Below are positions 42,152-44,073 of a DNA stretch of 64,000 nucleotides, piece after piece. The first letter of the stretch is position 1, and each line of letters starts with the position of its first letter. This DNA is from a virus. Lineage: Duplodnaviria; Caudoviricetes. The DNA lies in IMG/VR virus record IMGVR_UViG_3300043427_002668; one strand, given 5' to 3'. The notes under the pieces are model-generated. The model was not told the DNA's origin, made no database searches, and saw only the letters and a program-made list of their open reading frames with translations. The position numbers and the translations under genes are program-made.

Positions 42152-42581
42152 ACTTTTCACTATCAAAGGTGGAAAAGTTAATATATTCGGTATTACTAAG
42201 GCGATGGTAATCGCTTTTATTACATCAAGTATTGTAGTTGCTATTGCGGGATATTTTAAATTATCTCAAGAAGATCTTTGGAAGTTTATTACGCTTATTC
42301 AACAGGAACTGGGAATTGAATTTGGAGAGGATTTGAATGAGAAGTTTAGGAATGATGAGAAGTTATTAGATTTTATCATCAAAAACAAAGTAGATCAAGC
42401 CATATATGACTATGAACGCTTGACAGGGGACTCTGGAACCCCTAGAATACCTTTGCCACGGTTGATAGAGAAGGCTCCAGAAGCTTCTATATGTTACACT
42501 GAAGAGTGTAAGAAACTAGGAGGAGAAATGAGACTTTGTGCTCCGTGGCTTGACACCTGTAAGGAAGAACCTGTAAAATAG
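42120..42581 (+). CDS. membrane-anchored hypothetical
   Basis: TM segment AMVIAFITSSIVVAIAGYF; Cys-rich C-terminus CYTEECKKLGGEMRLCAPW. Confidence 0.65.
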   Translation: MISLWRNIMIKLFTIKGGKVNIFGITKAMVIAFITSSIVVAIAGYFKLSQEDLWKFITLIQQELGIEFGEDLNEKFRNDEKLLDFIIKNKVDQAIYDYERLTGDSGTPRIPLPRLIEKAPEASICYTEECKKLGGEMRLCAPWLDTCKEEPVK

Positions 42582-42586
42582 AATAT

Positions 42587-42664
42587 GTCGCGGTTTAAAC
42601 CTTAAGATAAGATCCAGTGGGGCACTTATTAAAAAGGTTTAATTTAGATTCACAACCACGCGAC
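42587..42664 (+). ncRNA. long stem-loop RNA candidate
   Basis: GTCGCG/CGCGAC, TTAAACCTT/AAGGTTTAA and GATAAG/CTTATT nested stems. Confidence 0.4.
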
Positions 42665-42670
42665 ACTCAC

Positions 42671-42699
42671 TTGACGATCAAATCCTAACCTGGTATGAT
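42671..42699 (+). promoter_or_regulatory. sigma70 promoter for the tRNA cluster
   Basis: TTGACG-N17-TATGAT. Confidence 0.7.
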
Positions 42700-42849: not shown

Positions 42850-42933
42850 TTGGAGTTTATCTCCATATATAAAAGTAATAGAGAGTAAGTCTCTGTTATA
42901 TCCTTATGAGGTATATCACACTTACTCCATCTT

Positions 42934-43018: not shown

Positions 43019-43058
43019 CTTGACAATCAAACTCAAAAGGTTTATGATTGTCTCATAA

Positions 43059-43129: not shown

Positions 43130-43149
43130 CTGAACCTTCGGGTTCTTAT

Positions 43150-43221
43150 TCCACAATGGCGCAGCGGTAGCGCAGAAGACTGTTAATCTTTTGGTCCCTG
43201 GTTCGAATCCAGGTTGTGGAG
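43150..43221 (+). tRNA. tRNA-Asn(GTT)
   Basis: GAAGA-CT-GTT-AA-TCTTT; full cloverleaf. Confidence 0.92.
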
Positions 43222-43223
43222 TT

Positions 43224-43455
43224 GAAAGGGTTGGAAATGTCCGATTCTTTCATATTGGTTCTGGGTGGAATTCCCAGCAGTTCCGTTAGGGACTGTCCTT
43301 TGTAGGTTCGATACCTACATCTTCCTTATGGGAGATAAGAACGGCTATTGGAAACCTTCGTAGGTGCCAAAACCTCTCCCCAGGTCGATGTTTAAACTGG
43401 TGCTTGGGTGAATGTAAAGAGTGGGGACATAGGTAAAGTCCCCAACACCTACCAC
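43224..43455 (+). ncRNA. multi-hairpin structured RNA candidate containing a T-loop
   Basis: At least 6 well-paired stems in a non-coding 230-nt gap (see findings). Confidence 0.5.
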
Positions 43456-43456
43456 A

Positions 43457-43530
43457 TCCTCTGGTAGTCTATTGGTAAGGACAGGCAGACAATGCACTTG
43501 GAAACTAGGTTCGATTCCTAGACAGAGGAC
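43457..43530 (+). tRNA. tRNA-like element with a non-canonical anticodon arm
   Basis: Acceptor CCTCTG/CAGAGG; D-arm with GGTAA; T-arm CTAGG-TTCGATT-CCTAG; anticodon stem only GCA/TGC. Confidence 0.5.
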
Positions 43531-43535
43531 CTTTT

Positions 43536-43608
43536 GCCCGATGACCCAGCTAGTGAAGGGACCTGCCTTACAAGCAGGCATCGGTAGGGGCGGAACCTAT
43601 ATCGGGCA
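43536..43608 (+). tRNA. tRNA-Val(TAC) with an atypical T-loop
   Basis: CCTGC-CT-TAC-AA-GCAGG; T-loop is GGCGGAA rather than TTCRANT. Confidence 0.75.
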
Positions 43609-43638
43609 TACTTGATAAATAAATACAAAAAGAGTATA

Positions 43639-44073
43639 ATGGAAAAACTGTTTAAACTCTTAAGTGATGCTCAGTCATCACTTTTTGTTTTATTTCATAA
43701 AACTTGGGCGTTTCACTGGAATGTAGTTGGAGAAGATTTTACTCAACTACATCAACTCTTTGGCGGACAGTATGAAACGATGTTTGAAGAGATTGACAGA
43801 CTCTCCGAACATATGAGATACTTAAATGTAAAACCATTAAGTTCTCTTTCAAGAATGCTTGAGGTTACACAAATTAAAGAGGCAGCAAGTTCATCTGGAG
43901 CAAAAGATATGCTTCAAGAACTTCTGGATAATAACACTAAGTTTTGTGAGTTGATGGTAGAGATTTCGGAAGAAGCAGAGCAACAAAAGTCTTATGCAAC
44001 TGCTAATCTAGTTCAAGATTTAATGGAATCTCACGGTAAGTTTGTATGGCAATTAAGATCACATTTACAGTGA
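43639..44073 (+). CDS. dps: Dps/ferritin-like DNA-protection protein
   Basis: HKTWAFHWNVVG.DF.QLHQLF..QY....EEID...E ferroxidase motif; H.KF.WQL C-terminus. Confidence 0.92.
   Translation: MEKLFKLLSDAQSSLFVLFHKTWAFHWNVVGEDFTQLHQLFGGQYETMFEEIDRLSEHMRYLNVKPLSSLSRMLEVTQIKEAASSSGAKDMLQELLDNNTKFCELMVEISEEAEQQKSYATANLVQDLMESHGKFVWQLRSHLQ

Follow-up and report, generated by a model that had tools for sequence, protein, structure and literature searches.

Three separate conserved RNA modules, one of them derived from a junction between tRNA genes, within the tRNA cluster of a T4-like cyanophage

Extra stable RNAs, such as RNA C and RNA D of T4, have been known to be encoded within phage tRNA clusters for 50 years, and their purpose has never been found. 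A recent account still lists the function of RNA C/D as unknown (PMC9697503). The corresponding genes, rnaC and rnaD, are 119-139 nt in length and lie inside or at the end of the T4 tRNA cluster, on the tRNA strand. Genes in which the parts of a tRNA are rearranged are also familiar: in the circularly permuted tRNA genes of the Cyanidioschyzon merolae type, the 3' part of the tRNA lies upstream of the 5' part. A tRNA-like module is present as well in the bacterial and phage Y RNA YrlA (RF02553; Chen et al. 2014), in which a variable arm, a T-arm, a sealed acceptor stem-loop, and a D element follow one another in that order (PMC4201824). In M. smegmatis, the acceptor of YrlA is 7 bp long, and this RNA is a substrate both for RNase P and for CCA addition; dimeric tRNAs can score as false YrlA hits (PMC4201824). 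Finally, the published phage tRNAs that act against tRNA-targeting defences are functional, decoding molecules with altered anticodon loops (PMC10264068; PMC11464382).

The window analysed here, a 64,000-nt stretch of viral DNA (IMG/VR record IMGVR_UViG_3300043427_002668), comes from a lake-water, T4-like cyanomyovirus; among cultured phages it is closest to S-SRM01 and DSL-LC03, which infect freshwater Synechococcus. Its tRNA cluster contains, in + strand order, tRNA-Arg, tRNA-Leu, tRNA-Gly, tRNA-Asn, a 235-nt gap, two tRNA-like sequences (X and Y), and a Dps-like gene. An earlier note had proposed that the gap encodes one undescribed, multi-hairpin RNA of about 230 nt. Comparison with related loci reveals that the gap consists of three separate, conserved, folded RNA modules, designated H, A, and B. 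The modules and their immediate neighbours are:

43149-43222, + strand: tRNA-Asn(GTT), the upstream flank of the gap (ARAGORN; Rfam tRNA model, 68.8 bits)
43223-43252, + strand: module H, a 13-bp hairpin with the loop AAUG, directly 3' of the tRNA
43257-43356, + strand: module A, a tRNA-derived RNA of ~100 nt with five helices and a sealed acceptor
43360-43452, + strand: module B, a 93-nt three-way junction
43458-43531, + strand: X, a tRNA-shaped RNA, the downstream flank of the gap
43536-43608, + strand: Y, tRNA-Val(UAC)-like (Rfam tRNA model, 32 bits; missed by ARAGORN)

Division of the gap into these units rests on blastn searches with each segment, on ARAGORN maps of 80 IMG/VR loci that share the neighbouring Dps-like gene, and on ~190 additional loci retrieved with short invariant motifs; these ~270 related loci come from closely related uncultured phages, such that the counts given below are not counts of independent events. 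In the window, H, A, and B are contiguous, separated by spacers of 3-4 nt, and the minimum free energy (MFE) fold of the whole gap pairs 5' portions of A with 3' portions of B, both as would be expected of a single composite RNA of ~230 nt acting as a unit or a switch. However, in most related loci the modules are found apart and reordered, with other modules between them. A is present without B in three loci (L035, L051, L079), B without A in five (L019, L023, L076, L045, L050), and C, a 75-nt module missing from the window, lies between A and B in L005-L008; several positions have X on its own. When distinct contexts are counted, the sequence next downstream of A is C in 15, B in 6, X in ~10, and otherwise another hairpin or a tRNA; the sequence upstream of B is C (28), A (5-6), or one of ~25 others. 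Such counts indicate a mosaic cluster with cassettes of two kinds, tRNAs and structured modules that are not tRNAs. Furthermore, each module folds alone into a conserved structure, and the long-range A/B pairing of the whole-gap MFE fold is not the conserved one. Neither the postulated switch, in which GTAGGTG/CACCTAC competes with ACCT/AGGT, nor the ACCT-TCGT-AGGT hairpin itself gains support from this comparison: the hairpin is possible on paper but straddles the boundary between A and B, which are adjacent in only 6 of 39 contexts. A match to a known composite RNA is also missing, as neither manA (RF01745), considered as an identity and rejected, nor any other Rfam model matches the gap up to E = 10, while the cyanophage wcaG RNA motif, detected in the window at 95 bits by the Rfam scan, provides a working control. 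A composite RNA is thus extremely unlikely.

Folding of the whole gap yields -86.5 kcal/mol, versus -67.7 +/- 4.8 for shuffled sequences (z = -3.88), and 0 of 200 shuffles folds as well. All of the hairpins that had been described from the single sequence are present at the positions given for them. In addition, a comparison of homologues, which had been suggested as a check, reveals compensatory changes within the helices, which are kept in 98-99% of alignment cells, and RNAalifold recovers the same helices of A and of B independently. G-U pairs are frequent in both modules (U-G in 33 of 36 copies at one pair of helix P5 of A; UG/GU in 38 of 60 copies at one pair of helix P2 of B), which places the structures on the + strand. 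The gap is non-coding, as had been supposed: only chance open reading frames of 29-78 aa overlap it, none of them is conserved, and the length of B (81-97 nt) varies by steps that are not multiples of three.

None of the three modules belongs to a described family, again as anticipated. A gathering scan of Rfam and two permissive scans to E = 10, of 1.1 kb and of 213 nt, detect no significant family in the gap; the best matches, ar15 at 14.6 bits and a partial match to tRNA-Sec at 12.6 bits (E = 7.2), are both far below threshold. The RF00005 tRNA model has no match within 43223-43457 up to E = 10, and ARAGORN calls neither a tRNA nor a tmRNA there. Likewise, no Rfam model for a tmRNA, a group I intron, or a self-cleaving ribozyme matches, and nothing in the gap points to a ribozyme. 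When the gap was compared by blastn with 50,697 GenBank phages, only its first 31 nt (H) matched, in the marine phage S-PM2; A and B are absent from these cultured phage records at that sensitivity. Whole-genome searches of S-SRM01, DSL-LC03, and S-PM2 with the covariance models also detect neither A nor B, and no description of H, A, or B RNAs was found in the literature.

Module A is composed of the following elements:

43257-43260 (GGTT) / 43353-43356 (AACC), + strand: helix P1, 100% paired
43258-62 (GTTCT) / 43338-42 (AGAAC), + strand: alternative closing helix, which excludes P1
43261-43277, + strand: P2, 5 bp (CTGGG/CCCAG, 43261-65 / 43273-77) with the 7-nt loop UGGAAUU
43278-43295, + strand: P3, 7 bp (CAGTTCC/GGGACTG, 43278-84 / 43289-95) with a variable tetraloop
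43302-43318, + strand: P4, a T-arm (GTAGG-TTCGATA-CCTAC), nearly invariant, with a canonical T-loop
43319-43336, + strand: P5, a 7-bp acceptor-like helix sealed by TTAT (ATCTTCC-TTAT-GGGAGAT), 99.6% paired
43337-43352, + strand: tail, AAGAACGGCTAYTGGAR, a conserved, D-loop-like single strand with UGG inside

When 36 distinct copies are aligned, columns average 96% identity, pairing is kept in 99.3% of cells, and double changes occur at 4 pairs. Because P2, P4, and P5 are almost invariant (the P2 stem is unchanged in 35 of the 36 copies), covariation speaks neither for nor against these helices. Variation is seen in P1, whose first pair is GC, UA, or CG and whose second is GC, AU, or GU, and in P3, where two pairs have double changes (CG to UA) and the loop is free to vary. 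The closing helix is ambiguous between P1 and GTTCT/AGAAC, and both may form; the latter is pairable in 98.9% of cells, has no double change, and is chosen by the single-sequence MFE. Within the tail, 12 of 16 positions are invariant in the 36 copies. A pseudoknot between the tail and the P3 loop (AACGG with CCGTT) was considered and rejected, as changes in the loop are uncompensated.

The possibility that the region encodes a tRNA mimic had been raised for the gap as a single RNA; it holds for A only. The T-arm is that of a tRNA, with a 5-bp stem, a TTCRANN loop, and direct stacking on the acceptor, since P4 abuts P5 without a spacer as a T-arm does in tRNA. In place of free, CCA-carrying ends, however, the two acceptor strands are linked by the TTAT loop in every copy; with such a sealed acceptor, A as transcribed would be unable to be charged. 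P2 lacks the combination of U33, a purine at 37, and a fixed anticodon. It contains instead G33, U37, and a middle triplet that varies among GAA, AAA, and CAA, and A as transcribed is therefore predicted to be unable to decode.

The source of A is indicated by the sequences that its model finds after the true copies, which are junctions between tRNA-Ser(GCT) and tRNA-Ile(GAT) genes in loci L051 and L178/L157. All 102 positions are aligned, at 33-34 bits (34.2 bits, E = 5e-9 within L051). P2 corresponds to the anticodon arm of the class-II tRNA-Ser, P3 to its long variable arm, and P4 to its T-arm. In P5, the 3' acceptor strand of tRNA-Ser pairs with a 5' acceptor strand contributed by the following tRNA, and the tail aligns with the D region (D-arm) of that downstream tRNA. 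The counterpart of P5 at the Ser/Ile junction of L051 and L178 reads ...ATCCTCC-GTAT-GGGAGAT..., and the junction linker with its following strand (...TCC-GTAT-GGGAGAT) is almost identical in some copies of A. These full-length matches show that A is a derivative of a junction between tRNA genes.

Module B has a different architecture:

43360-66 (GTAGGTG) / 43446-52 (CACCTAC), + strand: P1, a 7-bp closing helix
43379-85 (CCCAGGT) / 43402-08 (GCTTGGG), + strand: P2, 7 bp with a variable tip
43422-28 (TGGGGAC) / 43438-44 (GTCCCCA), + strand: P3, 7 bp with the invariant loop AUAGGUAAA

RNAalifold and the single-sequence MFE give the same three helices. When 60 distinct copies are aligned to the covariance model, 98.3% of cells are paired and 12 of the 21 pairs have changes on both sides; 0 of 500 shuffles reach any of five measures, and sliding the partners reduces pairing to 35-47%. 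The joiners between the helices, CCAAAACC and GAAUGUMAAGAG, are invariant or nearly so. A pairing of GGU in the P3 loop with ACC in the first joiner was considered; since every position involved is invariant, covariation speaks neither for nor against it. Conservation of the joiners suggests tertiary contacts or recognition by a protein. B shares a 7-bp terminal helix with tRNA but has neither a D-arm nor a T-loop, and no tRNA ancestry is detectable. A search of 185,579 prokaryote genomes gave 9 pattern matches, which is about the chance expectation, and none of these passes the B model.

Module H is simpler, with an MFE of -15 kcal/mol and a z score of its own of -5.7. All but one of its 27 distinct copies start right after the 3' end of a tRNA; in S-PM2 this is tRNA-Thr, with module C, a small hairpin, and a homologue of X next in line after H. 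The basal stem covaries (GAAAG/CTTTC, AGAAG/CTTCT, GGAAG/CTTCC, GATAG/CTATC) beneath a fixed apex (YTGGA-AAUG-UCYGR). The one exception (L044) has H within P2 of B: at 2118-2209 of this locus, a B variant carries the H apex, GGTTGGAAATGTCCGAATGG, on the tip of P2. Grafting of the apex onto B indicates that it is portable and hints that it may bind a protein or dock onto RNA. A scan flagged H as an intrinsic terminator, an assignment that was rejected since most variants lack a T-run after the stem. H probably signals processing or protection of a 3' end, or else provides a binding site for a protein.

The sequences around the gap include other unusual RNAs. In X the acceptor, D, and T arms are normal, but a 3-bp stem with the fixed pentaloop GACAA stands where the anticodon arm would be. 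This mini-stem covaries (GCA/TGC, GCG/CGC, GTG/CAC, and CCC/GGG in S-PM2). ARAGORN labels X differently from copy to copy (His(atg), Leu(caa), or '???'), and X has no match to the Rfam tRNA model. X is 97% conserved, occupies several positions in related clusters, and has no conserved base after the acceptor stem. Y contains an odd T-loop (GGCGGAA) and a D-loop without GG; in most relatives its place is taken by a normal tRNA-Val(TAC). Module C (~75 nt; L005 2678-2752 and, in S-PM2, L277 1232-1280) is absent from the window and is commonly located between A and B or before B; it forms two hairpins, CCTAAG..CTTAGG and CGGGGA..CCCCG, or GGTGAYGGGCACTCRTCACC. Upstream of the tRNA cluster, at 42586-42666, is a structured element of ~80 nt (z = -4.3), closed by GTCGCGG/CCACGCGAC, which may be a further cluster-associated RNA module; to the eye, a clear look-alike follows tRNA-Asn in DSL-LC03 (L002 3326-3405). 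The 83-nt spacer between tRNA-Arg and tRNA-Leu (42851-42933) contains a long helix, GAGTAAGT/ACTTACTC (z = -2.8), and is conserved in S-SRM01 (L001 2325-2407), where it lies between Arg and Asn.

Given the origin of A, it could be argued that this module, and perhaps also B and X, is a tRNA pseudogene in decay or a scar of recombination left by a shuffling of the cluster that is driven by homing endonucleases. The mosaic, with its shuffled order, would fit such an origin, as would the accessory nature of A, which is single-copy, present in 3 of 5 near-complete related genomes, and absent from the other 2. Nevertheless, in the same loci A averages 96.7% identity to the window, versus 89% for the DNA of the Dps-like gene and 83% for tRNA-Gly (83-87% for real tRNAs, although the tRNA alleles compared may not be orthologous). 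Compensatory changes maintain the helices, B has 12 covarying pairs and no tRNA ancestry, and the X mini-stem is kept by compensation from the freshwater phages to marine S-PM2. Neutral decay is quite improbable, and A appears from these comparisons to be under selection rather than a decaying relic.

Transcription of the modules can be predicted from the promoter-like sequences of the cluster. Within it are four strong σ70-type promoter-like sites on the basis of 10-11 of 12 consensus matches (42550-42579, 42671-42699, 43020-43048, and 43612-43640), from which the cluster would be transcribed as several short early units. The site of most interest is:

43020-43048, + strand: σ70-like promoter, TTGACA-17-TATGAT, a consensus match only (11 of 12 positions)

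This site precedes tRNA-Gly, tRNA-Asn, H, A, B, X, and Y, and the next promoter-like site on the + strand, at 43612, lies ahead of the Dps-like gene. From the arrangement of the four sites, the segment from tRNA-Gly through tRNA-Asn, the gap, X, and Y is plausibly one early transcription unit, and transcription of the modules probably starts at the 43020 site.

The reading that is favoured here, with a probability of roughly 60%, is that H, A, and B are co-transcribed cassettes and that A and B are released as stable small RNAs, by analogy with RNA C and RNA D of T4. Its observed basis is the modularity of the gap together with the structures, their strand, their conservation, and the origin of A; for transcription, processing, stability, and a binding partner, we infer the following pathway. 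The early-type promoter at 43020 would yield one transcript containing tRNA-Gly, tRNA-Asn, H, A, and B. RNase P would then cut at the 5' ends of X and of the other downstream tRNAs, and the usual 3' trimming enzymes would free A and B as stable small RNAs comparable to T4 RNA C/D. Once free, A would mimic a tRNA without decoding and would occupy a tRNA-binding protein of the host or the phage; the candidates are seryl-tRNA synthetase, a modification enzyme, and a defence nuclease directed at tRNAs. B would act as a scaffold that binds protein by way of its invariant joiners and loop. The suggestion, made previously, that processing of the flanking tRNAs releases the RNA is compatible with the position of B. 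In ~63 of 64 contexts, 3-5 nt separate the closing helix of B from a downstream gene for X, for a near variant of X, or for a canonical tRNA (Asn, Ala, Leu), so that the RNase P cut of this gene would define the 3' end of B.

Close association with tRNAs could also mean that the modules act in cis, as spacers that prevent misfolding of the pre-tRNA, position the cuts of RNases P, E, and Z, or block exonucleases. The modules are found only inside tRNA clusters and always abut tRNAs, H sits directly at a tRNA 3' end and was flagged as terminator-like, and A keeps a tRNA/tRNA processing junction. Yet most tRNAs in the same clusters are 1-40 nt apart without any module, which argues that the modules are not needed for processing, and the invariant loops and joiners of A and B suggest sequence-specific recognition beyond spacing. 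A role as cis-acting spacers is consequently possible, though rather unlikely.

The large and varied set of freshwater cyanophages compared here shows that the extras of their tRNA clusters constitute a repertoire of separately selected cassettes (A, X, B). The junction of two adjacent tRNA genes represents one route to a tRNA mimic. The puzzle of T4 RNA C/D is linked in this way to the tRNA mimicry of Y RNAs and to the phage-host conflict over tRNA cleavage, and the structures and covariance models provide a basis for asking what A, B, and X bind.

By architecture, the described RNA closest to A is YrlA. P3, P4, P5, and the tail of A are in the same order as the elements of the YrlA module, and both have a 7-bp sealed acceptor in the case of the M. 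smegmatis RNA. Topologically, the YrlA module corresponds to the junction in a tRNA dimer. In contrast to YrlA, the D element of A is single-stranded rather than a hairpin, an extra anticodon-type arm is kept, the terminal helix is 4-5 bp rather than a long stem, and the alignment does not contain the GNCGAA motif bound by Ro. Could A nonetheless be a YrlA-type Y RNA that tethers Ro60 (Rsr)? The shared order of elements is as expected, and the false hits that dimeric tRNAs give to YrlA (PMC4201824) fit the origin of A. However, the RF02553 model has no match up to E = 10 in the two permissive scans, A is located in a tRNA cluster rather than next to rsr, and no TROVE gene (PF05731) is present in five near-complete related phage genomes, three of which contain A, although the Deinococcus and Bacteroides controls were positive. 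Membership in the YrlA family fails, and a Ro60-tethering function for A is exceedingly improbable.

A also resembles the permuted tRNA genes in having the 3' portion of a tRNA ahead of a 5' portion, with the acceptor strands joined by a short linker; with GTTCT/AGAAC as its closing helix, it can be read as a tRNA permuted in the D-loop. It differs from them in having no usable anticodon and in being a chimera of two different tRNAs, and no gene for RtcB or an RNA ligase, by which the ends could be joined, was found in the five near-complete related phage genomes. These likenesses allow another fate for the transcript, in which A would be opened by RNase P and given a CCA tail to become a two-piece, D-loop-permuted class-II tRNA, with X and B belonging to the same toolkit. 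As in the YrlA of M. smegmatis, the opening site would fall between the TTAT loop and GGGAGAT (~43329/43330). The two pieces would be held together by GTTC/GAAC or GGTT/AACC, forming a non-decoding and possibly chargeable look-alike of seryl-tRNA that could be a decoy or a cofactor for a host tRNA-directed enzyme or a defence nuclease. Such an opened form of A is distinctly unlikely.

For the favoured reading, in which A is released with its acceptor sealed, the phage tRNAs that act in tRNA-cleavage conflicts offer a further parallel. As products of a phage tRNA cluster, both kinds of RNA may owe their value to this conflict rather than to the supply of codons, and A and X, as non-decoding tRNA shapes, could act as decoys in it. 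The known anti-defence tRNAs are decoding, whereas A, B, and X have no linked nuclease target or defence system, and the parallel is one of analogy only.

By position and kind, the closest described counterparts of A and B are T4 rnaC and rnaD. There is no homology between them; the covariance models of A and B have no match within T4 69000-76000. The RNAs of T4 have been shown to accumulate, whereas A and B are known here as sequences. Architectures also differ, since rnaC has a free acceptor end and that of A is sealed. Near its end, rnaC (L276 1909-2047, minus strand) contains a perfect T-arm, CCGGG-UUCGAAU-CCCGG, and the acceptor-like strand after the T-arm pairs with the upstream sequence ACGGAACG; the gene also has a weak tRNA-Sec-type match of 17.5 bits. 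Like A, then, rnaC (species 1) looks tRNA-derived, and like A and B, rnaC and rnaD are non-tRNA genes located within the tRNA cluster of a T4-like phage, on the same strand as the tRNAs.
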